NCBI GenBank assembly: GCA_963714035.1
Contig: OY970224.1
Coordinates: 1,375,688-1,439,687, forward strand
DNA from: an uncultured Acidobacteriota bacterium
GTDB lineage: Bacteria > Acidobacteriota > Thermoanaerobaculia > UBA5066 > DATFVB01
Length of the DNA stretch: 64,000 nt
Direction: 5' to 3'
This document shows positions 3,474-54,533 of this stretch, piece after piece. Below the pieces are notes generated by a model that was not told the DNA's origin, did not search any database, and saw only the letters and a program-made list of their open reading frames with translations. A program made the position numbers and the translations under genes. Every line of letters starts with the position of its first letter. The first letter of the stretch is position 1.

Positions 3474-3765
3474 CAGGCCGCTGAAAAACCGCACGGGTCG
3501 CGTTCGGAGCGCCGCCTCCCTCCGGCCGCGCCTCGGAGTGTCGTCACTCGCCCACCACCCCCGTCATCGCGAGCCGCGGCAAGCGGCGCGGCGATCTGCA
3601 AGGCTCGGGCCTGGGGATTGCTTCGCTTCCGCCGCCGCTCTTCGAGCTATGGCGGACAAGCCGCTCGCAATGACAGAGAAATGACCCTTGCAATGACGCA
3701 GAAAAGACGCTCGCCTCCTCGGACGAGACCATCTCGCCTCCGGAGAAGGAAGGCGCGGGCCTCCG

Positions 3766-6465
3766 CTACTTCTGGAGCTCCGAGGCCCAGTTGGTGGCCA
3801 GCGTGATCGACGAGCCCCGCAGCCCGCTGTCCGTCGGAACGACGAAAAGGAATCGGCTCCCGTCGGGGGAAACGTCGTACTGCCACTCGTCCGTCTGCGC
3901 GAGGGCCGGAAGCCGGAAGAGAGGCTTGACCGCTCCGACCTCGAACGACGGCGAGGAGGAGACCTCCGCCTCCATCATCCTGTTCGTCTCGTCGAGGTAG
4001 TAGATCGCGCGTCCGTCGCGCCGCCAGCGCGGCTCATATCCGCCACTGGAAGAGACCTGCCATTTTCCGCCGGCCTCCGGGAAGGACGCGACGTAGATCC
4101 TCGACAGGCCGGACTCGTAGGAGTTGTAGGCGAGCCACCGGCCGTCCGGCGAGAACCGGGCCACGGGATCCTTGATGCCCTCGTAGGGAAGCTGATACGG
4201 CGCGCCCCCGGGCGCCGTCGGCGCGACCCAGAGCTCGGTCCGGTTCACGGCGCCGCCGCCGGGAAACCGGCCGTACACGACGAATCGGCCGTCGCGCGTC
4301 CAATCCGTCGGAAATGCCTCGAGCGAAGCCACCACCTGGCGTTCCGGCTCCCGGCCGGAGATCGCCTTCCGGTAGAGGTCCCCGTCGTGGGTCCGATTCG
4401 ACGAGTAGAGAATTTCCGCGCCGTCGCCTGACCATACCGGAAAGCCGTTGGAGGTCGGGCCGAAGGTGAAAGCCGCAGGCGGCGCTCCCGGCACGGCGCC
4501 GAAAAGAACGATCTGAAAGGAGAGATCGAGCGGGTTCTGGAGCCCCACGGCGATCCTCTTGCCGTCCGGCGAAAGAGAAGGCTCCGAATAGATCGCCGGT
4601 TTTCCGAAGGTCTCGAGCCTTTGACCCGACCGGTCGAGCCAGGCGAGCTGCGTCGATCCCCCGCTGTCCCCTGCGAAATACGCGAGCAGGCCGTTACGCG
4701 ACACGGAGAACGCTCCGGCATAGCGCCCCCAGTCCCTCTGGACCGGGTTTGCGAGCGTCACGGGGTCGCCCCGGATCCGTCGCGTCGAGAGATCGAAGGG
4801 GGTCGCCTGGAGCGCGCTCCCCCGCATGGACAAGAGAAATCCCGGAGCGTATTCCGCCTGGGAGCTTGCGGTCAGCAGGAATTCGGCCGACATGTCGCCG
4901 AGCGTGCCGGCGAAGATGCCGTCCGACGGACCACGTCCGTGCAATCCCGAGGACCCCGCGAGGTAGATGAAGTGGCGGCCGTCCGGGAGGAATTCGGGAA
5001 ATCGGTGGGTCGCCTGGTGTTTGCTCGGATCGAGCTTCGTGGCCGGCGAGACCGCTCCGCCGGCCGCCGGAACGCGCGACAGGGGCCCGAAGACGTCCGA
5101 AGAGAAGAGGATGACGCCGTCCGCGCTCCACGTGCCTCCCCGGCCGTTGGGAGCGTCGGCGAGGATCTGCGGCGCCCCGCCTGCGAGCGCGATCTTCTGG
5201 AGCTTCCCGGAAGCGAAGAACCCCAGCCATTTCGAATCGGGAGACCAGAACGGATAGGAGGCCTGCTCGACGCCCGCCAGCGGATGCGCTTCGAGAGAAT
5301 CGAGCGAACGGACCCAGATCTGGAACTTGCCGTCGAGCGAGGCGACGAACACGATCGACTTTCCGTCCGGCGAGATCGCCGGCGGCCCGCTCGGGTCGTT
5401 GAAGAGCAGAAACTGAGCGTCCTGCGGCGCATTGAGAGACGCGCGAAGGACGGGGCTCGGCGCGCTCCCGGACCGGAATCGGAGGAGAAGAAGGAGCAAG
5501 GCGGCTGCCGCGGAGACCGCGAACCCGGCCCACGCGACCCGTTCCCGGCTCTTCCGGCGCGACACGACCGTCGCCGGAGCGCCCGCCTGCGACCCGGCCT
5601 CGGCGATCCACTGGAGCTCGCTCTTGACGTCGTGGGCGCTCTGCCAGCGGTCGTCCGGGTCCTTGGCGAGACAGGTCTTGACGACGCGATCCAGCGCCGG
5701 GGGCGTCATTGCCGCGATCGAGGAGATCGGAGGCGGGTCGCTCGCGAGAATTGCCGCGATCGTGCTCGCCCGGCTGTTTCCCGCAAACGCCTTCTTCCCG
5801 GTCGCCATTTCGTAAACGACGCAGCCGAGAGCAAAGATGTCGGCCCGGTGATCGGCTTCCTTGCCTTCGAGCTGCTCGGGTGACATGTACTGGAAGGTCC
5901 CCATGACGGTGCCCTTTTCCGTCAGCGGCTGATGGGCTTCCGTCGGAAGAGAAGTGAAGCCTTCTTCGCGCGCCGGCGCGAGGCTCTTGGCGAGGCCGAA
6001 GTCGAGGAGCTTCACGCCGGATCGGGTCAGCATGACGTTTCCGGGCTTCAAGTCCCGGTGGACGATCCCGCGCTTGTGCGCCTTCTCGAGCGCGTCCGCA
6101 ATCTCGACGCCGTTCTTCAGGACCTGGTCGAGCGGAAGGGCTCCCTTTTCGAGACGATCAGCCAGCGTCTGCCCCTCGAGGAGCTCCATGACGAGGTATT
6201 CGACGCCGTCCTGACTGCCGACGTCGTAGAGCGCGCAGATGTGCGGATGGGAGAGCTGCGAGATCGCCTTCGCCTCGCGTTCGAATCGCTGCCGGAGCTC
6301 GACGTTCTCCGACAGATGCGACGGGAGCACCTTGACCGCGACCTCCCGATCGAGCCGCGTGTCCTTCGCCTTGTAGACCTCTCCCATGCCTCCCGCGCCG
6401 ACGGCAGAGAGAATCTCGTAGGGGCCGAGCCGTGTTCCGGAAGCGAGGGGCATGTGTGCGCGCAA
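3766..6465 (-). CDS. Serine/threonine protein kinase with TM segment and C-terminal TolB-like (PD40/WD40) beta-propeller
   Basis: Hanks kinase motifs (GAGGMGEVYKA, VAVK, HRDLKPGNVML, DFGLAK, GTFQYMSPEQ), a hydrophobic TM stretch (AWAGFAVSAAAALLLLLL), then repeated WSPDG/SPDG propeller blades. Confidence 0.85.
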   Translation of the reverse strand: MRAHMPLASGTRLGPYEILSAVGAGGMGEVYKAKDTRLDREVAVKVLPSHLSENVELRQRFEREAKAISQLSHPHICALYDVGSQDGVEYLVMELLEGQTLADRLEKGALPLDQVLKNGVEIADALEKAHKRGIVHRDLKPGNVMLTRSGVKLLDFGLAKSLAPAREEGFTSLPTEAHQPLTEKGTVMGTFQYMSPEQLEGKEADHRADIFALGCVVYEMATGKKAFAGNSRASTIAAILASDPPPISSIAAMTPPALDRVVKTCLAKDPDDRWQSAHDVKSELQWIAEAGSQAGAPATVVSRRKSRERVAWAGFAVSAAAALLLLLLRFRSGSAPSPVLRASLNAPQDAQFLLFNDPSGPPAISPDGKSIVFVASLDGKFQIWVRSLDSLEAHPLAGVEQASYPFWSPDSKWLGFFASGKLQKIALAGGAPQILADAPNGRGGTWSADGVILFSSDVFGPLSRVPAAGGAVSPATKLDPSKHQATHRFPEFLPDGRHFIYLAGSSGLHGRGPSDGIFAGTLGDMSAEFLLTASSQAEYAPGFLLSMRGSALQATPFDLSTRRIRGDPVTLANPVQRDWGRYAGAFSVSRNGLLAYFAGDSGGSTQLAWLDRSGQRLETFGKPAIYSEPSLSPDGKRIAVGLQNPLDLSFQIVLFGAVPGAPPAAFTFGPTSNGFPVWSGDGAEILYSSNRTHDGDLYRKAISGREPERQVVASLEAFPTDWTRDGRFVVYGRFPGGGAVNRTELWVAPTAPGGAPYQLPYEGIKDPVARFSPDGRWLAYNSYESGLSRIYVASFPEAGGKWQVSSSGGYEPRWRRDGRAIYYLDETNRMMEAEVSSSPSFEVGAVKPLFRLPALAQTDEWQYDVSPDGSRFLFVVPTDSGLRGSSITLATNWASELQK

Positions 6466-12858: not shown

Positions 12859-13147
12859 CGAGCGCGGGAAGATATCACGGGAGATCAGAAGCAGCGGATG
12901 CGAACGGAGCGGCGATGTGACGGGTTCACGCCGGCCGGAGGAGATCCACCGCGCACACAGTCGTGCGAACCACGACCGGGGTTCCTCGCTCGATCCGGCG
13001 CCGGCACCAACGCGCCGGCGAGCTCGCTCGGGACTGGCTCGCACACTGGCGTGTGCGGCGATCGCCGCGCCATGCACCTCCGGTGCATGGGCCGCTTCGC
13101 GGCCCGTCTTTCGCGCGCACGCGAAAAACACGCTCGAATCAGTCCTT

Positions 13148-13167
13148 CGCGCGCACATCCGTGCGCG
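13148..13167 (-). terminator. Possible fabF terminator hairpin (gcgcgcac-atcc-gtgcgcgc), with a T-run ~20 nt further downstream on the minus strand
   Basis: Perfect 8-bp stem with 4-nt loop immediately 3' of the fabF stop (13175). U-run (gtgttttt, rc of 13121-13128) is not adjacent, so weak. Confidence 0.25.
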
Positions 13168-13174
13168 CTGCGGA

Positions 13175-14425
<1,251 letters not shown>

Positions 14426-14765: not shown

Positions 14766-16574
14766 CTAGAGGGCCGGTCCCTCCGCCCCGAGCAGCTCGC
14801 GGCGAATCAGGGCGATCGGGATCGCTCCTTCCTTCAGGAACGCGTCGTGGAACTTCCCGAGATCGAAGGAAGCCCCTTCCCGGGCCTTCATCTGGTCGCG
14901 AAGCCGGACGATCATGAGCTTGCCGAGCTGGTAGCGGAGGTAACCGGGGTCCTGCGTCCCCCGCAGTGCCTCGACCATGGCGTTGTGGGGCGTCATGAAG
15001 GCGTTCTTCTGAAAGAACGCCGCCGCCTCGTCGACCGTCATCCCTTCGGTGTGAAGGGCGATTCCCGCCAGATAGCGGCACGCCCGCTGGAGCGCCGCCT
15101 GGATCTGCGCCAGCCGGTAGCTCGGATCGTCCCCGTGGAGCCCCTGGTCCAGCATCATCTCCTCGCAGTAGAGGGCCCACCCCTCGGCGTTGGCGCCCGA
15201 CGCGAAGAGCGACCGCACCCGGTCGGGATTCAGGCGGTTGTTCAGGAACTGCGCGTAGTGCCCGGGATACACCTCGTGGGCGGAAAAATTCGAGATCGAG
15301 GGAGCCGAGAAGAACTCGAGGAGCTGTTCGGCCTGTTCCGGCTTCCAGGACGGCTCGGGAAGCGTGACGTTGAAATAGGCCTCGGTCGCCTTCTCGAACG
15401 GGCCGGGCGTGTCCATCGACGCGAACGACGTCGCGCGCGCGAAGGGCGGCGTCTCCTGCACGATCGGCCGGACCTCGGAGGGCAGCGTCGCGAGCCGGTG
15501 CGAAACGACGAACGCGCGAAGATCCTCGAGCCCGGCCTTCACCGCCGGGATCACCTGGCTCGCCTCGGGATGCCGGCGCGCGAGGGCCTGATAGACCTCG
15601 GCGGGCGGCTTGCCCGGATCGATCTTCGCGGCCGTCTCCCGGAACTCGGCGAGCAGCCGGGCGAGCTCCTTCTTTCCGATGTCCTCGAGCGTCGAGATCG
15701 GCGTGTCGACCATGTCGTCGTCGGCGAGCATGCGCTGGTAGGCCGACGCACCGATCGCGAAATGCCCGTTCGCCCTCGTCAGGAGGTCGTCGTTCAGCCA
15801 CTTTCCGTAGGCTTCGATCGCCTCGATGACGCGCGCGTTCGCGTCGGCGAACGACTTCTTCGCCGGCCCCTCCGGGACGGCCGCGAAAGCCGCCGGCAGG
15901 TCGTTCCGGAAGAAGGAGAGCGTTCCCGGCATCTGCCGGAGCGCGATCTCGACCGAGACTTTCGGAGTCTCTCCGGGCGTCAGCATCGCGCGGGCGGCGG
16001 CGAGATTGGCGAGCGAGGCCCGCTCCCGCGCGGCCGCGATGCGCATTCGCTCGGCGAGCGGCGCGAAGTCGCGCTGGATCAGGCCGTAGATCGCGGCGGT
16101 CGGCAGATAGGAACCCGGATTGACGCGGGCCGTCTTCCATTCCGTCTCGCGGAGGACCTGGCCGTCGATGAACGCCAGCAGCCATTCCCGGTCCGACGCC
16201 TCGTGCGGGGAGAGGCCGCGCGGGTCGATCGACGAGAACCTTTTCTTCCAGGCGAGGGCCTGCGCGAGACGGCGGCGTCCGCCTTCCGCGGACCGGTCCG
16301 TGACGAGCTCGTCGAAGCGGTGCTCCCCTTCCTCCGTGGCGAGCTCGGGATGGAGCCGGAAGTTCTCCTCGACGAAACGGTCCACCTCGGTCTTGAAGGC
16401 TCCATCCCCGGAGCCGGCCGCGGCCATCGTGGAAGTTGCGGCCGGCGAGGCCGCGAGGGCGGCCGGCGACGCCGCGAGGGCGGCCGGCGACGCCGCGAGG
16501 GCGGCCGGTGAGGCCGCGAGGAATGCTGTCGCCACCGCCGCGAGAACGACGATCGGAAGCCGGAAGTCACGCAT
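14766..16574 (-). CDS. Secreted DUF885 family protein (possible metallopeptidase-like), inserted between fabG and acpP
   Basis: Start [15 protein letters not shown] with RBS GAGGAGG. Signal region contains the (ASPAALA)n repeat. Body matches the DUF885 pattern from memory (…[11 protein letters not shown]…, [10 protein letters not shown]). The upstream part of the listed 907-aa ORF overlaps fabG and is not coding. Confidence 0.7.
16446..16524. repeat. 21-bp tandem repeat (~3.7 copies) encoding (ASPAALA)n in the DUF885 signal peptide
   Basis: cg(a/c)(g/c)gccgcgagggcggccgg repeated head to tail, 16446-16524. Confidence 0.8.
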
Positions 16575-26105: not shown

Positions 26106-27089
26106 CTACCAGCGCATCAGGGCCGCGCCCCACGTGAGGCCGGCGCCGAACGCGGTCATCAGCACGAGGTCGCCGCTCTTGACGCGCCCGCCGCGCGCGC
26201 ATTCGTCGAGCGCGATCGGGATCGACGCCGCCGACGTGTTTCCGTAGCGCTCGATGTTCTTGTAGACCTTGTTGGTGTCGATCTTGAGCTGCTTGCCGAC
26301 GGCGTCGATGATCCGCTCGTTCGCCTGGTGCGGGATGAAGAGCTGGATGTCGTCGTGCGTGAACCCCTGCTCCTCGAGGACCTCTTCGGAGACCTCGGCC
26401 ATCGCGCGCACCGCGACTTTGAAGGTTTCGTTCCCCTTCATCTTGATGAACGGGAGCCGCTCGTCGATCGAGGCCGGATCGTTCGCGGGGCGCGACGAGC
26501 CTCCGCCCGGCATGCAGATGAAGTCGCCGTAGTTGCCGTTGGACTTCATCGAGGAGCCGAGGATCCCGTGGTCGCCGCGCGTCGCCTGGAGGACCGCCGC
26601 GCCCGCCCCGTCGCCGAAGAGCACGCAGGTCGAGCGGTCGGTCCAGTCGACGTATCGGGAAAGGATCTCGCCGCCGACGAGGAGCACGTTGCCGGCCTTG
26701 CCCGACTGGATGAGGCCGTCGGCGAGGTGGAGGCCGTAGAGGAATCCGGTGCAGGCGGCGGAGAGATCCGAAGCCGCCGCCCTGACCGCGCCGATGTTGT
26801 TCTGGACGAGACATGCCGTCGACGGAAAGAGCATGTCGGAGGAGACGGTTCCGACGAGCACCATGTCGAGGTCCGCGGCAGCGACGCCGGCCGCGTCGAG
26901 CGCCCGCTGGGCCGCGCGCGTGGCGAGCTCGGAGAACTTCTCGCCCGGCGCGACGATGTGCCGCTCCTTGATCCCGGTCCGGGTCGTGATCCACTCGTCG
27001 GACGTCTCGACGATCTTCTCGAGGTCGGCGTTGGTGAGCAGGCGCTCGGGCACGCAGGAGCCCGTTCCGACGATCCTGGCTCTCAGCAT
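26106..27089 (-). CDS. fabH: 3-oxoacyl-[ACP] synthase III
   Basis: RIVGTGSCVPE..., active-site Cys in AACTGF; C-terminal HQAN and GNTSAASIPIAL. Confidence 0.9.
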   Translation of the reverse strand: MLRARIVGTGSCVPERLLTNADLEKIVETSDEWITTRTGIKERHIVAPGEKFSELATRAAQRALDAAGVAAADLDMVLVGTVSSDMLFPSTACLVQNNIGAVRAAASDLSAACTGFLYGLHLADGLIQSGKAGNVLLVGGEILSRYVDWTDRSTCVLFGDGAGAAVLQATRGDHGILGSSMKSNGNYGDFICMPGGGSSRPANDPASIDERLPFIKMKGNETFKVAVRAMAEVSEEVLEEQGFTHDDIQLFIPHQANERIIDAVGKQLKIDTNKVYKNIERYGNTSAASIPIALDECARGGRVKSGDLVLMTAFGAGLTWGAALMRW

Positions 27090-27280
27090 CTCGGTCGATT
27101 ATGACAGGGTTGGCCGTAGCGGCAATTCCCGAAAATCGCGCCCCGCCTGCCGTGAATGTCGGTTCAGATCGGCGGTGAGGCACGAGCCCCCGACTCGGAG
27201 CCTTGTCGTCCCGGCGGGCGCTGGAGCGGTCGAGCCCGATGCGCGCGAAGCGAGCCGCCGCTCTACGTCTTCCCGCTCTC

Positions 27281-27420
27281 GGTGGGGCGCCGGAGCGGTC
27301 GAGCCGGGAAGGCGAGCCGCGGAGGTCACCGCGCGATTAGTCTCCGCGAGTAACCGAGCGGAGGAGGATCGCGCGGTGGGAGGCCGAGCGGTTCCAGCGG
27401 AGCGTGCCGCTCGGCCGACG
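27281..27420. repeat. Structured REP-like repeat, family A, copy 1 (tandem with copy 2; period 260 bp)
   Basis: 140-nt core ~98% identical to 27541-27680. Contains nested perfect helices caccgcgcgat/atcgcgcggtg (27328-27338 / 27368-27378) and ctccgc/gcggag (27342-27347 / 27358-27363). Confidence 0.85.
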
Positions 27421-27540
27421 GGCGCAAGTGGAGCCGGGCCACGAATCGGTTCGGAACAACCTGAAAGCGCGGTGAGGCGCGAGCCCGGCGGGATGCGGTT
27501 GTCCTGGCCACGCGTTTCCAACTCGGCGGTTTGTCGTCCC

Positions 27541-27680
27541 GTTGGGGCGCCGGAGCGGCCGAGCCGGGAAGGCGAGCCGCGGAGGTCACCGCGCGATTAG
27601 TCTCCGCGAGTAACCGAGCGGAGGAGGATCGCGCGGTGGGAGGCCGAGCGGTTCCAGCGGAGCGTGCCGCTCGGCCGACG
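27541..27680. repeat. Structured REP-like repeat, family A, copy 2; ends 1 nt before the plsX stop codon (27682-27684)
   Basis: Same core as copy 1; located immediately 3' of minus-strand plsX. Confidence 0.85.
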
Positions 27681-27681
27681 G

Positions 27682-28701
27682 TTATTGGACGTGGGCGGAC
27701 TGTTCGCGCGAATGCAGATCCGCGATCGACTCCTGGATCCGCTCGGACATGCGCTTGCGCGAGAACTCGGCGGCGAGCCGGATCGCGTTCTTGATCGCCT
27801 TGGCGGAGGATCGGCCGTGGCCGATGATGCAGCACTTCTTGACCCCCAGGAGCGGCGCGCCGCCATACTCGGAGTAGTCGATGCGCGCCTTGAACGCGCG
27901 GAACGCGGACTTCGACAGGAGGAAGCCGATCGAGGCCTTCGCCGACTTCGTGATCTCCTCGCGGAGCGACTTCTGGATCATCTCCGCCAGCGACTCCGAG
28001 GCCTTCAGCAGGACGTTTCCGGTGAAGCCGTCCGTGACGATCACGTCGCACCGGCCGTTGAACACGTCGTTTCCCTCGACGTTCCCGATGAAGTTGAGGC
28101 CCGTCTCCTTGAGGACCTTGAAGGCCTCTTTCGTCTTGTCGGTCCCTTTCGTGTCCTCCTCACCGATCGACATCAGGCCGATGCGGGGGGCTTCCATGCC
28201 GAAGAGGAGCTGGGCGTAGAGATGGCCCATCACGGCGAATTCCCGGAAGTTGTTGTTCTTGCACTCCGGGTTGGCGCCGACGTCGAGGAGCAGGCAGAAG
28301 CCGGAAACGGTCGGGATGATCGCGGCGAGCGCCGGGCGGTCCACCCCTTCGATGGTCCCGATGACCATCTTGGCCGAAACCATCGCGGCCCCCGTGTGCC
28401 CCGCCGAGACGAGGCCGTCCGCCTTGCCTTCCCGCACGAGCCCGGCCGCCACACGGATCGACGAAAACCGCTTCTTCCGCACCGCCGCGACGGCCGCCTC
28501 GTCCATGCCGACGACCTCGGGAGCTTCGACGATCTCGATCGGGACGCCGCCGGTGTCCTTCCCTTGGAGGAGCGGGGCGATCCGGGCGCGCTGGCCGACC
28601 AGGATCGTCGAGACGCCGAATTCGCGGGCGGCCGCAATCGCCCCGTCGACGTTGACGTCGGGAGCGTGGTCCCCGCCCATGGCATCGACCGCGATCTTCA
28701 T
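27682..28701 (-). CDS. plsX: Phosphate acyltransferase
   Basis: MKIAVDAMGGDHAP...; family-typical GTDKTKE..., GNVLLK motifs. Confidence 0.9.
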   Translation of the reverse strand: MKIAVDAMGGDHAPDVNVDGAIAAAREFGVSTILVGQRARIAPLLQGKDTGGVPIEIVEAPEVVGMDEAAVAAVRKKRFSSIRVAAGLVREGKADGLVSAGHTGAAMVSAKMVIGTIEGVDRPALAAIIPTVSGFCLLLDVGANPECKNNNFREFAVMGHLYAQLLFGMEAPRIGLMSIGEEDTKGTDKTKEAFKVLKETGLNFIGNVEGNDVFNGRCDVIVTDGFTGNVLLKASESLAEMIQKSLREEITKSAKASIGFLLSKSAFRAFKARIDYSEYGGAPLLGVKKCCIIGHGRSSAKAIKNAIRLAAEFSRKRMSERIQESIADLHSREQSAHVQ

Positions 28702-31819: not shown

Positions 31820-32090
31820 GGTCGAGCGCCGCCGACGCGAGCCGCGAGCGGCCAGCAGCGCGGGCCCGGTCGCGGAAAATGTGGGCGCCAAGGGCGCATT
31901 TTCATTTGCGCCTCGCGCCCTCTCCCGAGCGAAGCAGGGGACCTGCGACCCGGAGCAGATCCCTCGTCGCTTCCGCCTTCGCTCTTCGAGCGACGGCGGA
32001 CAAGTCGCTCCTCGGGATGACATCCTCCGGAGGTCCGCGACCGGAGAGAGCGCAGCGGTCGAGCGCCTCCGGCGCGAGCCGCGAGCACCG

Positions 32091-34570: not shown

Positions 34571-34968
34571 TCGATCGGGGGCGCGGCGATGCATCGAGCC
34601 GGACGGGCGCGTGCCGCCCACGAGACCCTGCGACATACGCCCCGGTATGCCTCGGGATCTCGCGGCCGACCCGCATCCCGTCGGGCTCGCGCCTCGCCGC
34701 GCCTTCGGCAGCTTGCAGGCCGGTACGCGTTAGCAGCCTGACCGGGAACCGGGCGAACTCGCCGGACCTTCTCTCGATGGTGACGAAGCCGTCGCCGATA
34801 CAACGGGGAAGGCCAGCGAAGGCCAAATTTTCCGTCTCATCGCGATGCTCCCGGATTCAGCAGCCGGGTGAGGTCGCGCAAATGAATCGGCCGCCAATCG
34901 CGGGTAGAAGCCAGTCTCGGATTCGAAGTGCCGACAGACCCGTACCACGGCGCGTATCGCCGTCCCCG

Positions 34969-43314: not shown

Positions 43315-43487
43315 GACTTCCTCCGAAATGCTAACAACGCCGCCGATGGGCGGGGAATTCCTTGGAGCGGCCACACATGAACGCAGCCGGAACGGAACCT
43401 AACGAGCCAACCCGCTCCGAGGATGTCGGCAATCGCCGTCTGGAGTGGATGCCGGCCGGCCGTTGGAAGCTGCCCGGGAATGGCCCC

Positions 43488-43612
43488 CGTCGAGCGCCGG
43501 AGCGGTCGAGCCGAGAAGGCGAGCCGCGAAGGTCAGATCGCGGAAAGTCTCGCCGAAGTAATCGAGGCGAGGAGGTCCGCGATCTGGGAGGCCGCAGCGT
43601 TCCAGTCGCGGT
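43488..43612. repeat. Structured REP-like repeat, family A, diverged copy 4 (compensatory changes in both helices), embedded in the 3' end of the deiodinase-like ORF
   Basis: Outer helix cagatcgcgga/tccgcgatctg and inner helix ctcgcc/ggcgag replace caccgcgcgat/atcgcgcggtg and ctccgc/gcggag of copies 1-3. Flanks (gagcggtcgagccgagaaggcgagccgcgaagg ... ggaggccgcagcgttccag) align with copy 3. Confidence 0.75.
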
Positions 43613-44270
43613 GCGACGCGCGCGATGCCGACGGAAACCGTCTGGCGAGCCAGGCCTCGAGCTCCTCGGGATGGAAGCCGAACGGCCCGGTTTTCCCCTT
43701 GTACGCGACGCGTCCGTTCTCGTCGACGACGTAAATCCGCTCGGGCCACCCGGCGTAGAGCGCGTCGGCCCGGTTGTCCATCGCGTCGACGGCGAGCGGA
43801 ATCCGAAAATGGAACCTTTTCGTGAAATCCGCCGCGATCGCGATCCGCTGCCCGAGCGTGTGCGGCTGCGGATAGCAGATCCCCTGGTCGTCGTTGGCCT
43901 TCATCTTCCACTCGTCGATGGGATGGGCCTCGCGGATGTAGACCGTCAGGAATTCGACGCGGCCGCGGTAGCGATCGTAGATGTCCTCGAGCCGCGCGAC
44001 CGAGCGGCGAAACGGCGGTCAGGTGAAGCTTCCGAACACGAGGACGAGCGGCCGCGCCCCGATCCGTTCGGCGAGACGCGTCGTGCCCGCCCCGGCGACG
44101 GCGTGCAGCACGACGTCGGGCGCCGGGCTTCCGACGCGCAGCGCCCCTTCGCGGCGGGTGTCGTACCGGAGCATGCCGATGATGTTGGACGGCCCGATCT
44201 TCGCCACGACGAAGGCGGCGAGGCCGACGACGACCGCGGCGACGAGCAGGAGCACGCGGCGAAGCGTCAT
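43533..44270 (-). CDS. Putative selenoprotein: iodothyronine deiodinase-like thioredoxin-fold protein with in-frame TGA (Sec) at 44019-44021
   Basis: ATG 44268-44270, N-terminal TM anchor (LLLVAAVVVGLAAFVVA), then ...RPLVLVFGSFT-TGA-PPFRRSV..., in the same frame continuing YIREAHPIDEWK...VVDENGRVAYKG. FGSxT(U/C)PPF and YI.EAHP.DGW-like motifs are the deiodinase signature as recalled. Listed ORFs 44019..44948 (3' part) and 43533..43904 are the two halves. The C-terminal ~25 codons derive from repeat A copy 4. Confidence 0.55.
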
Positions 44271-45172: not shown

Positions 45173-45567
45173 ACGGGCGCCCGTGATCGCCACCGGGAGG
45201 CCGCTTCGGCGGCCTCCCTTTTTCACGTCGGCCTCGCGCTCGCCGCTCCGCGGCTGGAACGCTACGGCCTCCCGGATCGCGGACCTCCGGAGCAATGAAA
45301 CCGTCGCGGCTCGCCGAACGAGCGACTCGACCGCGCCACCGCCAGCCCCTTCGCCGACGCTCCCGCTCCCGCAACGCGGAGCTTTCGCCGATAAGCCCGA
45401 AATCCGCCGCACCGTTTGATCCACATCAGCGTATTCGCCTTGAACCGAGAGTGCGGGCATTCGAGCAGATCAGTCGAGACGCCTCAGCGCGGGCTCTTCG
45501 GTCTCGCCAACGATCACACTGACCTGAAGAAGCCAGCTATTTGGCTCGGGCCGAGCGGGCGGGACTT

Positions 45568-53142: not shown

Positions 53143-53523
53143 ATGAAGAAGATCCTCGGGATTCTGGTGTCGGTGCTCGCCGCCGCCGCGATGGCGTCGG
53201 GAGCGGAACAGACGTGGCACGGCAAGATCAGCGACAGCATGTGCGGCGCGTCCCACAAGTCGGCGATCGAGCACTCGGGAAAGAAGCTCAGCGACCGCGA
53301 CTGCACCCAGGCGTGCATCAAGGACGGGGCGAAGTACGTCTTCGTCAGCGGCGGGAAGGTCTACGACATCTCGAATCAGGACGAACCCGCGCTGGCCGAG
53401 CACGCCGGCCACAGCGTGTCCCTCAAAGGGGAGATGACCGGCAACTCGATCAAGGTGTCGAGCATCTCGATGGGCAAGAGCGGGAAGACGATGTCCAAGG
53501 AGAAACCCGCCTCGACCTCGTAA
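53143..53523 (+). CDS. Small secreted Cys-containing protein of unknown function (126 aa)
   Basis: RBS AAAGGAGAG before ATG 53143; signal peptide MKKILGILVSVLAAAAMASGA; 4 Cys. Confidence 0.5.
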   Translation: MKKILGILVSVLAAAAMASGAEQTWHGKISDSMCGASHKSAIEHSGKKLSDRDCTQACIKDGAKYVFVSGGKVYDISNQDEPALAEHAGHSVSLKGEMTGNSIKVSSISMGKSGKTMSKEKPASTS

Positions 53524-53647
53524 GCCTGTTACAAGGCTGAAAAAGGGGACCGGTCGCGCGCGAGCGAGGCCGGTCCCTTTCGTTTTGCGGCATGACCCGC
53601 GCGCGCCGCTGCCCGGCGAACTTCTCGAGCCCCACCCGCCGTCAACG

Positions 53648-53786
53648 AATGGCTACGGTGGGGCGCCGCAGCGGTCGAGCCGAGAAGGCGAGCCGCGAAG
53701 GTCACCGCGCGATTAGTCTCCGCGAGTAACCGAGCGGAGGAGGATCGCGCGGTGGGAGGCCACGCGGTTCCAGCGAAGCGAGCCGC
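53648..53786. repeat. Structured REP-like repeat, family A, copy 3; ends ~12 nt before the rnc stop codon (53799-53801)
   Basis: gcgccgcagcggtcgagccgagaaggcgagccgcgaaggtcaccgcgcgattagtctccgcgagtaaccgagcggaggaggatcgcgcggtgggaggccacgcggttccagcgaagcgagccgcgcggccgacgg; same helices as copies 1-2. Confidence 0.85.
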
Positions 53787-53798
53787 GCGGCCGACGGT

Positions 53799-54533
53799 CT
53801 ATTGACGGGCGAGCCTTTCGAGCGTCGCCCTCGCCGCCTGCCTCTGCGCCTCCTTCTTCGACGTCCCTCTTCCCTGCGCGAAGGCGACACCGTTCCAGAG
53901 AACTTCGATCAGGAACGTCTTTTCATGGTCGGGGCCGATCTCCTCGAGGACCCGGTACTCCGGGAGCGGCAGCCCCAGCCGCTGGGCCGTTTCCTGCAGC
54001 GTCGTCTTGTAATCGTGGAACGAGAGATCGCCCAGGTCGATCCCCGAGATGTCGGGCTCGAACATGCGCGAGATGAAGGGAGCGACGGCGGGCAGGCTCC
54101 CGTCGAGATAGATCGACGCGATCACCGCTTCGAGCGCGTCGGCGAGGAGGGAGTCCTTGCTCGCGCCGCCGGACCTCGCTTCTCCCGAGCCGAGCCGCAG
54201 GAACACGCCGATCCCCAGCTCGCGCGCCTTCTGGGAAAGCGTCGCCGCCGAAACGAGGTGCGCCTTGATCTTCGAGAGAGAGCCCTCCTGGAGAGCCGGG
54301 AATCCCTTGAAGATCAGCTCGCCGATGACGAAGCCGAGCACGGCGTCGCCGAGGAATTCCAGGGTCTCGTTGTGCTGGACGCGCGGCATGCGGTTCTCGT
54401 TCGAATACGACTTGTGCGTGAGCGCCCGAACGAGGAGGGCCGGATCGCGGAACGTGTACCCGAGCTTCTTCTCGAGGACGCTCCACGGCGGCCGGAACGC
54501 AGTGCTCACGCCCGGATCCCCCGGGCGGACCAC
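53799..54533 (-). CDS. rnc: Ribonuclease III
   Basis: RNase III signature ETLEFLGDAVL and C-terminal dsRBD (EKTFLIEVLWNGVAFAQGRGTSKKEAQRQAARATLERL). True start may be the internal GTG (VSTAFRPP...). Confidence 0.85.
   Translation of the reverse strand: MVRPGDPGVSTAFRPPWSVLEKKLGYTFRDPALLVRALTHKSYSNENRMPRVQHNETLEFLGDAVLGFVIGELIFKGFPALQEGSLSKIKAHLVSAATLSQKARELGIGVFLRLGSGEARSGGASKDSLLADALEAVIASIYLDGSLPAVAPFISRMFEPDISGIDLGDLSFHDYKTTLQETAQRLGLPLPEYRVLEEIGPDHEKTFLIEVLWNGVAFAQGRGTSKKEAQRQAARATLERLARQ

Follow-up and report, generated by a model that had tools for sequence, protein, structure and literature searches.

A structured, CGTC-tagged REP-like repeat family with a tendency to lie at gene 3' ends in an uncultured Acidobacteriota bacterium

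Introduction

Why does the spacer between plsX and fabH in an uncultured Acidobacteriota bacterium hold the same folded sequence twice? The question is raised by a stretch of 64,000 nucleotides (nt) from contig OY970224.1, with a G+C content of 69%, which we call the window. An earlier note, made from the letters of this stretch, had described a structured element resembling repetitive extragenic palindromic (REP) sequences. It reported compensatory base changes in the helices of the element and placed the copies at the 3' ends of genes, leaving open whether RNA or DNA is the form that matters. We find that reading supported. The element is present in many copies, modular and constrained in structure; its subfamilies coexist in one genome, its copies are polar with respect to gene ends and their presence varies between genomes. 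It is probably a lineage-specific, non-coding family of interspersed intergenic repeats, akin to REPs and to bacterial interspersed mosaic elements (BIMEs), with a composite core of ~145 nt and a CGTC tag, that has spread as DNA.

REP-type repeats are known mainly from Proteobacteria. In Escherichia coli, REPs protect the 3' ends of mRNAs from exonucleases, and those that lie within ~15 nt of a stop codon reportedly lower expression by stalling ribosomes. One super-family is defined by an unpaired CGTC at the foot of its hairpin (Di Nocera et al. 2013, BMC Genomics 14:522; PMC3733652). Its published families are units of 20-40 base pairs (bp) with stems of 8-9 bp that start with A/T pairs and loops of 4-5 nt, arranged mostly as head-to-head dimers; they were reported from five phyla, Acidobacteria not among them, and no associated transposase was reported for the class (PMC3733652). 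REPs lie near the 3' end of the upstream open reading frame (ORF), less than 20 bp away where the genes converge, and at varying distance from the downstream ORF (PMC3733652). Their termini sometimes supply the stop codon, some REPs are found inside ORFs and G·T pairs are frequent in their stems (PMC3733652).

Results

A repeat family in the window and its relatives

All four copies that had been noted are present, and a repeat search of the window and a covariance model (R1) agree on them. The repeat search returned 27277-27421 and 27537-27681, which are 98% identical, 53653-53797 (92%) and a diverged copy at 43478-43556. The model found four full copies at 122-147 bits (c1 to c4) and a fifth match, c5, at 30.9 bits; the rest was noise. 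The fourth copy is real, but it is longer than the span 43488-43612 first given to it and reaches 43636. Within it, a 63-nt arm (43571-43633) is 89% complementary to 45226-45288, and this inverted pair identifies c5 as a partial copy on the other strand, unlisted in the earlier note. In all, the window holds four full copies of ~145 nt, one partial inverted copy and one degenerate variant (Table 1). The degenerate copy is 67.7% identical over 248 nt to the element adjacent to plsX in a related locus, L133 (E 2e-25), and the ATG of a GT4 glycosyltransferase gene follows 8 nt after its end.

Could such copies arise by chance? The motif GGTCGAGC-N3-14-GCGAGCCGC occurs six times in the window against an expectation of 0.01. 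GGGAGGCCNNNNNGTTCCAG has five exact matches and one with two mismatches, where 0.33 would be expected with up to two mismatches allowed. These counts lie so far above expectation that a chance origin of the copies is excluded. Copies c1, c2 and c3 are 92-98% identical to one another while their flanks are unrelated.

The pair between plsX and fabH had been described as a tandem repeat with a 260-bp period. Two copies do stand there, but the period is mere spacing: Tandem Repeats Finder (TRF) detected no 260-bp repeat, and the 115-nt stretches between and before c1 and c2 do not align, leaving only the 145-nt core in common. A separate repeat of ~32 nt, GCGCGGTGAGGCGCGAGCCCGGCGGGATGCGG, occupies 27467-27498 (plus strand) in the spacer between them. 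It recurs, with 85-97% identity, at 34671-34706 of the window (minus strand) and in no fewer than 12 related loci. With a foreign repeat lying among copies of the element, the plsX-fabH spacer combines repeat families into a mosaic, much like a BIME. The genes around the copies had been called correctly: PlsX matches Pfam FA_synthesis, and FabH, RNase III (by Pfam) and the deiodinase-like ORF are confirmed.

Relatives outside the window were collected with strict DNA patterns. A 19-base pattern run against the GTDB species representatives hit 52 loci, of which blastn retained only six as true relatives: five from the Acidobacteriota metagenome-assembled genome (MAG) MFD05502.bin.2.147 and one from a Thermoanaerobaculia MAG. 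The other loci with the pattern are, by blastn, chance matches in unrelated GC-rich genomes and were discarded. A scan of soil metagenomes with the pattern GGAGGNNCGCGNNNNGGGAGGCCNNNNNGTTCCA returned 84 loci. Together, the soil metagenomes and the two MAGs supply about 90 further loci (numbered with the prefix L), and R1 makes 127 matches at E<1e-3 in 90 related loci. The metagenome query fixes GGAGG, CGCG, GGGAGGCC and GTTCCA, so the conservation of these motifs in that set is partly ascertainment and does not count as independent evidence; everything outside these motifs, the terminal GCCGACG and the helices' partner strands included, is unbiased. Several of the related loci share synteny with the window, with 80-92% of nucleotides identical, which places the window in one acidobacterial group with these MAGs and metagenome contigs. 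The Rfam search that had been proposed was run and no family of Rfam 15 matched, whether at the gathering score over the window, at E<=10 over 27100-27700 or at E<=1 in six loci bearing variants of the element. The plasmid collection PLSDB holds no match to the element.

Three hairpins in fixed order

Alignment covered 41 distinct canonical copies over ~145 nt, 39 of which were re-aligned (alignment A5). The copies consist of three hairpins in the fixed order A-B-C, joined by linkers that contain GGAGG, and the unit ends in GCCGACG(G/T). The two nested helices described at the outset are both there, but they make up hairpin B alone and the full architecture has three hairpins.

Hairpin A has the consensus GCGG-U-CGAG-[stem of 2-4 bp with variable loop]-CGAG-CCGC. 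Its two CGAG stretches could, from their sequence, form tandem G·A pairs. The inner stem covaries, reading CC/GG in some copies and GGG/CCC in others. Among the 57 best distinct matches to the model, one inner pair is GC in 29 copies and CG in 24, and another is UA in 23 and CG in 10, with 21 unpaired cells; the third is GC in 30 and CG in 4, and is gapped in 23.

Hairpin B has an outer stem of 11 bp, an internal loop (UUAGU or AAAGU opposite GAGG), an inner stem of 6 bp and a loop containing GUAAC. Re-reading the sequence bore out the outer helix caccgcgcgat/atcgcgcggtg and the inner helix ctccgc/gcggag around a 10-nt loop in the first three copies, and their counterparts cagatcgcgga/tccgcgatctg and ctcgcc/ggcgag in the fourth. 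It also placed GGAGGAGG on the 3' side of the inner helix, as noted. The GTG that follows GGAGGAGG was rejected as a start codon, being constrained by pairing and opening a frame that leads out of the element. A coding reading of the whole was dropped likewise: the ORFs that cross the element are high-GC artefacts or read-through from a neighbouring gene.

Hairpin C has a stem of 10 bp, and its loop starts with a conserved UUCCAG and holds a small variable distal hairpin. Directly after the stem comes the terminal GCCGACG, which is invariant in 39 of the 39 aligned copies and lies outside the metagenome search pattern. Read on the strand of the neighbouring gene, the element begins CGTC-GGCCGAGCGG-loop-CCGCTCGGCC-UCCCA.

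On this core the family builds variants. Many copies carry one or two optional hairpins upstream, CCGTGCTTCGCACGG and GTCGCGATCCGAGCTCCGCGAGCGTCGCGAC. 'Long' variants have a multi-hairpin insert of ~100 nt at the exact point in the B loop where GAAG meets AACCGAG, and 'D' variants carry a GATCCCTCG...CTCGGGATGAC module instead of the inner B hairpin. Pieces of the inserts also stand alone, as at 13037-13070 of the window, which matches the ~100-nt insert of the long variants. This piece lies in a hairpin-rich intergenic block of 290 nt that extends from 12885 to 13175; the orthologous site in L134 measures only 38 nt. A 44-nt repeat (3623-3666 and 31967-32010, 89% identical) is part of the GATCCCTCG...CTCGGGATGAC module, its second copy lying far off at 3623. 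Where a locus holds several copies of the element, they are almost always on one strand and head-to-tail, sometimes directly abutting. Opposite-strand pairs occur only in L057, in L091 and as c4/c5 of the window, and in each pair every copy faces its own gene of a convergent pair.

Structure kept by Watson-Crick compensation

The compensatory changes first seen in one diverged copy extend to 57 copies, in which 23 of 36 pairs have changed on both sides. We wrote the structure by hand from the sequences, as 36 pairs in four helices, and scored it on A5, a MAFFT-based alignment of 39 copies. Of 1389 cells, 94.9% are paired; 15 of the 36 pairs have changed on both sides and 153 cells are compensatory. 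None of 500 shuffles reached these values. When the 3' partners were slid by 1-3 columns, pairing fell to 34-51% and only 1-5 pairs were changed on both sides.

The 57 best distinct model matches give 95.5% of 1990 cells paired and 256 compensatory cells in an alignment that was fitted to the covariance model, which favours structure, and the MAFFT-based count agrees with it. Again, no shuffle in 500 reached the observed values, and the slid controls had 33-55% of cells paired and 2-5 double-changed pairs. The outer stem of hairpin B is the most telling case: 99.2% of its cells are paired, 7 of its 11 pairs have changed on both sides and at least 10 different sequences occur across the copies, each with its exact complement. 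The stem of hairpin C is 90% paired in the 57-copy set, with changes on both sides in 9 of its 10 pairs.

Which strand is under selection? G·U pairs fill 4 of the 1990 cells in the 57-copy set, so pairing is almost purely Watson-Crick, and this lends no support to selection on one particular RNA strand. The sporadic mismatches in helices A and B comprise 2 G·U against 4 A·C, the neutral expectation for single transitions; neither strand is favoured, and the mismatches carry no signal of a strand of function. Both strands fold significantly better than shuffled sequences (z of -3.7 and, for the minus strand, -4.3), and of the two it is the plus strand whose folding energy is lower, at -91.9 kcal/mol. 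We infer that selection acts on a hairpin that forms in DNA, or on both strands equally, rather than on one RNA strand. Several motifs that are left single-stranded, GGAGG (three times), UUCCAG and AGUCU, look conserved.

Polarity towards gene ends

In all five copies of the window, the end that carries GCCGACG, the tagged end, points toward the 3' end of the nearest gene. The plsX stop codon is TAA at 27682-27684 and the rnc stop codon is TAG at 53799-53801, both on the minus strand. The deiodinase-like ORF (43533-43904, minus strand) meets no stop before c4 and reads ~35 codons into it; its annotated C-terminus is therefore encoded by the repeat. The partial copy c5 lies 3' of a DUF5670 gene (stop 45172) and of the terminator-like hairpin of that gene. 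This hairpin, at 45185-45215 between the gene and c5 (GGGAGGCCGCTTCGGCGGCCTCCCTTTTT on the plus strand), is of the conventional kind with a T run and indicates that canonical terminators are in use at some genes of the genome.

The earlier note had proposed that gene ends are preferred, and in the related loci the preference is strong and polar. We took 70 distinct copies with at least 200 nt of flank and recorded the nearest feature within 300 nt of the tagged end. A convergent stop codon is nearest in 32, at 0-5 nt in 17 of them and at 13-15 nt in 3; in 3 of these 32 copies the ORF reads 84-101 nt into the element. For 7 copies the nearest feature is the 3' end of a convergent tRNA, 2-8 nt away, and for 2 it is the next module of the array. 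Copies that may face a start codon are taken up in the Discussion; the remaining 14 have no feature within 300 nt. One of these 14, at 7589-8000 of L013, adjoins a transfer-messenger RNA (tmRNA) gene, its tagged end lying 4 nt from the gene's 3' end (Rfam RF00023, 91 bits, with the tmRNA cut by the locus end). Further tRNA ends, seen by eye after L032, L062 and L086, were confirmed neither by ARAGORN nor by Rfam and were dropped. About a third of the copies have the tagged end 0-8 nt from a convergent stop codon or from a tRNA or tmRNA 3' end. The opposite end of the element lies 17-369 nt from genes, mostly more than 100. No common target sequence is evident at the junctions.

A GC-rich hairpin just past a stop codon invites the idea of an intrinsic, Rho-independent terminator. 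We rejected it, because no U tract follows. A terminator search of 27050-27750 and 53450-53900 found no terminator-like site, and the sequence after hairpin C, read on the strand of the gene, is UCCCACC. The minus strand carries a sigma-70-like promoter match at 27098-27125 (TTGCCG-16-CATAAT with TG), immediately upstream of where fabH starts. To judge from this match, fabH may have its own promoter downstream of c1 and c2.

Turnover between related genomes

Sites that can be compared between the window and its relatives differ in what they hold. The copy that follows the plsX stop is canonical in the window; in L133 (92% identity in the flanks) it is a 'D' variant from a different subfamily. 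In L041 (80-86% identity in the flanks) the stop of rnc is followed by a long variant, closer to c4 of the window than to c3, its positional counterpart. At the glycosyltransferase site, L070 has a full copy where the window has the degenerate one. A short-chain dehydrogenase gene is followed by two copies in L134; its orthologue in the window has no copy and is directly followed by an extra gene, of the DUF885 type. This lipoprotein-like gene (14770-16574, minus strand) is absent from L134 and contains near its 5' end a 21-bp tandem repeat of four units at 16438-16542. Three metagenome contigs that encode exactly the PlsX of the window (L137, L138 and L139) stop 6-171 nt past its stop codon. 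With contigs breaking off within the repeat, the family causes assemblies of this lineage to fragment.

Search for a mobilising enzyme

What could move such an element? We searched 0.46 Mb of related loci and the window by tblastn with IS200 TnpA, an E. coli-like REP-associated tyrosine transposase (RAYT) and the L013 protein described below, and found one Y1_Tnp gene only, whose terminal inverted repeats (TIRs) are unrelated to the element. This gene occupies 3631-4584 of L013 (Pfam Y1_Tnp, E 1.2e-11) and encodes an IS200-like protein with a tail resembling the helix-turn-helix of the DnaA C-terminus. It is bracketed, over 3486-4620, by GGGGTCAGATCTACAATATAAA inverted repeats of the GGGGTCAG type, with an extra repeat copy nearby, and it matches the 'TIRYT' type with a GGGGWSAS motif described in Acidobacteria (PMC3733652). 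A solo copy of its TIR stands next to the element in L110, at ~1463. The TIRs being unrelated, no link between the L013 transposase and the element was established beyond this solo repeat.

Simple hairpins tagged with CGTC show no special enrichment in the window beyond the element itself, CGTC ranking 11th among the 256 tetranucleotide tags. Target-site duplications were sought in 36 copies at all end offsets for k = 3-6, and none was found; the best score was 7 of 36, for a 3-mer.

Table 1. The element and its parts in the 64,000-nt window
Feature	Position	Strand	Remarks
c1, full element (hairpins A-B-C)	27279-27423	+	plsX-fabH spacer, distal to plsX; 146.4 bits, E 7e-30
c2, full element	27539-27683	+	146.6 bits; GACG end 1 nt from plsX stop
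c3, full element, convergent intergenic region	53655-53799	+	143.7 bits; GACG end 2 nt from rnc stop
c4, full element, other subfamily (outer stem CAGATCGCGGA)	43486-43636	+	122.1 bits
c5, partial: A-like module, hairpin C and tag, without B hairpin	45223-45350	-	30.9 bits, E 3e-5
Degenerate 'D' variant copy (A module, GATCCCTCG...CTCGGGATGAC insert, truncated C)	31838-32085	+	between two plus-strand genes
Solo A-module fragment upstream of c1	27210-27270	+	pattern match 27228-27258; weak model match, 11.2 bits; 77.6% to L041 5757-5823
Hairpin A of c2	27555-27580	+	GCGG/CCGC outer stem, CGAG/CGAG internal loop, inner stem of 2-4 bp
Hairpin B of c2	27587-27638	+	27587-27597 pairs with 27628-27638 (outer stem) and 27602-27607 with 27619-27624 (inner stem); loop of 10-12 nt including GUAAC
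Hairpin C of c2	27642-27676	+	10-bp stem GGCCGAGCGG/CCGCTCGGCC
GACG at the foot of hairpin C in c2 (CGTC tag on minus strand)	27677-27680	+	invariant in 39-copy alignment

Discussion

What kind of element is this? Near-identical copies in unrelated flanks, head-to-tail arrays and exchange of variants at matching sites point to a REP- or BIME-like family that has, in our judgement, probably spread as DNA. Its copies would be generated at the DNA level. The most likely route, by analogy with known REP systems, is recognition of the tagged hairpin as single-stranded DNA (ssDNA) by a trans-acting HUH/Y1 enzyme of the RAYT kind. Such recognition would explain the covariation confined to Watson-Crick pairs, the lack of inverted termini and of target duplications, and the conserved tag. 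Selection for it would keep the stems Watson-Crick, G·T being no substitute for a pair in DNA. Recombination or gene conversion between copies probably gave rise to the mosaics and to the replacement of one subfamily by another at a single site.

An element inserted in this way would be co-transcribed with the upstream gene or tRNA, and a stable GC-rich hairpin would come to lie 4-10 nt past the stop codon, within the footprint of the ribosome. From what is known of E. coli REPs, a hairpin so placed would be expected to affect 3'-end formation, protection against 3'-exonucleases or translation coupled to termination. By the same analogy, side effects at the RNA level on neighbouring genes are plausible.

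The likeness to CGTC-tagged REPs is close in several respects. In both, an unpaired CGTC stands at the foot of a GC-rich hairpin and a short C-rich tail follows; both are extragenic and close to gene 3' ends, sometimes overlap or extend ORFs and have coexisting stem variants. The published REPs show the same proximity to gene 3' ends, which makes the polar attachment of our element a known REP property. With REPs and BIMEs, and with the REPIN-RAYT system of Proteobacteria (REPIN, REP doublet forming hairpins), the family shares high-copy extragenic palindromes, mosaics, compensatory stems and a place between unidirectional or convergent genes. For REPIN-RAYT, recognition by a Y1 enzyme as ssDNA hairpins has been proposed, and RNA side effects, in the form of mRNA 3'-end protection, are known. 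Unlike those systems, our element forms no inverted doublets, is about four times longer, combines three different hairpins and nearly lacks G·T pairs.

Two other groups bear comparison. BOX elements of Streptococcus pneumoniae (boxA-boxB(n)-boxC) are modular with a variable middle, fold strongly, are intergenic and can affect neighbouring genes, but they are AT-rich, lack the CGTC tag and belong to an unrelated lineage with unrelated sequence. We know of no mobilising enzyme for BOX, and of no report that it abuts stop codons or tRNA ends in a polar way. The Acido-1 and Acido-Lenti-1 RNAs in Rfam come from the same phylum and are likewise intergenic and supported by covariation, but no Rfam 15 model matches the element.

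Several observations weigh against spread as a REP-like DNA element. No transposase flanked by the element was found in the loci searched. The all-against-all comparison of loci yielded only confounded cases and no clean empty site, so that mobility is deduced from copy similarity, turnover and arrays. Up to 15 of the 70 copies may have a co-directional start codon, and not a gene end, as the feature nearest the tagged end; in 6 of them, for example in L064 and L070, it lies no more than 6 nt away. Orientation toward gene 3' ends, given in the earlier note as common to all copies, is consequently a strong tendency and not a rule, a minority of copies abutting a start codon in the opposite sense. 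The conserved-looking single-stranded motifs resemble those of a functional RNA, though GGAGG, CGCG, GGGAGGCC and GTTCCA were fixed by the query. Finally, the details depart from the REP pattern. Compared with the published CGTC families, the hairpin C stem has 10 bp and starts with GGCC, a G/C foot, and its loop measures 15-24 nt; arrays run head-to-tail where CGTC-tagged REPs and REPINs typically form head-to-head dimers; and in size and complexity the element goes far beyond classical REPs, the tagged hairpin being the last third of a three-hairpin unit.

The alternative that deserves most attention, though we hold it to be rather unlikely, is that the element is a cis-acting RNA. It would be transcribed at the 3' end of the upstream gene or tRNA, as a trailer that is the reverse complement of the strand given here, and act as a terminator without a U tract, a 3'-end protector or a modulator of translation termination; it would have been spread by duplication or gene conversion because it is useful. 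The first hairpin does stand 4-10 nt after stop codons and tRNA or tmRNA ends in a fixed sense, and no canonical hairpin with a T run follows plsX or rnc. Since the sigma-70-like site of fabH is downstream of both copies, they would end the plsX transcript. The strong covariation and the z of -4.3 for minus-strand RNA fit as well. But one-strand selection on RNA usually tolerates G·U, and here G·U is nearly absent and the mismatches favour neither strand. There are also copies in the opposite sense, with a start codon immediately after them. Copy c5 comes after an ordinary terminator-like hairpin, and the element lacks a U tract. Selfish repeats typically show what is seen here: tandem arrays, inserts nested in copies, truncation of copies and breaks in assemblies. 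As a secondary effect, a role in RNA is compatible with a REP-like DNA element.

There is a second possibility, which we also rate as doubtful. The element could be the substrate of a dedicated ssDNA system, HUH-type or other, that places a CGTC-tagged three-hairpin unit in one orientation a few nucleotides at most from gene 3' ends, be they stop codons or tRNA and tmRNA termini; alternatively, the conserved core of three hairpins, with its expandable hairpin B, could function as an RNA or ssDNA scaffold for a specific partner protein. A dedicated ssDNA system, if true, would provide a first mechanism for the 'orphan' CGTC class of REPs and a mode of insertion targeted to gene ends.

Much less credible is an independent small RNA made from the plus strand, convergent to the neighbouring gene, in which three Shine-Dalgarno-like GGAGG motifs or GGA motifs titrate ribosomes or a CsrA-like protein. 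GGAGG does occur three times in the linkers and GGA in several loops, and the plus strand has the lower folding energy. Against this, the sequences 5' of the copies differ, leaving no conserved promoter, and no promoter-like site adjoins the element and no terminator closes it. The conservation of GGAGG in the metagenome set was imposed by the search pattern, and dozens to hundreds of copies at gene ends, with no Rfam match, are unlike known small RNA genes.

A classical MITE (miniature inverted-repeat transposable element), that is, a deletion derivative of an insertion sequence with a DDE transposase moved by cut-and-paste through its TIRs, is largely refuted and correspondingly improbable: the element does resemble bacterial MITEs in size (~145-320 nt), in copy number, in lying between genes and in having copies that are nested or mosaic, but its termini, GGTGGGGCGCC... 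and ...GGCCGACGG, are not inverted repeats of one another, the scan of 36 copies gave no signal of a target-site duplication, and its orientation is polar to genes. Neither sign of an insertion sequence or MITE, terminal inverted repeats or target duplications, was thus seen. Integron attC sites, group II introns, retrons and CRISPR were rejected, the flanks being housekeeping genes and tRNAs and the defining motifs being absent.

The element is a new and unusually elaborate family of the known REP kind, in a lineage that has been little studied, and present evidence does not indicate a new kind of system. What it contributes is a very clean data set: covariation restricted to Watson-Crick pairs across ~36 bp in dozens of copies, a fixed composite architecture whose middle hairpin can expand, and a sharp polarity of attachment to stop codons and to tRNA or tmRNA ends. 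In practical terms, the repeat breaks metagenome assemblies, extends or truncates annotated ORFs and could pass for a structured RNA in covariation screens. In this lineage the family opens two questions to testing: by what means elements of this kind are copied and reach their targets, and whether a hairpin close to the stop codon tunes expression. It could also help to find what mobilises CGTC-tagged elements.

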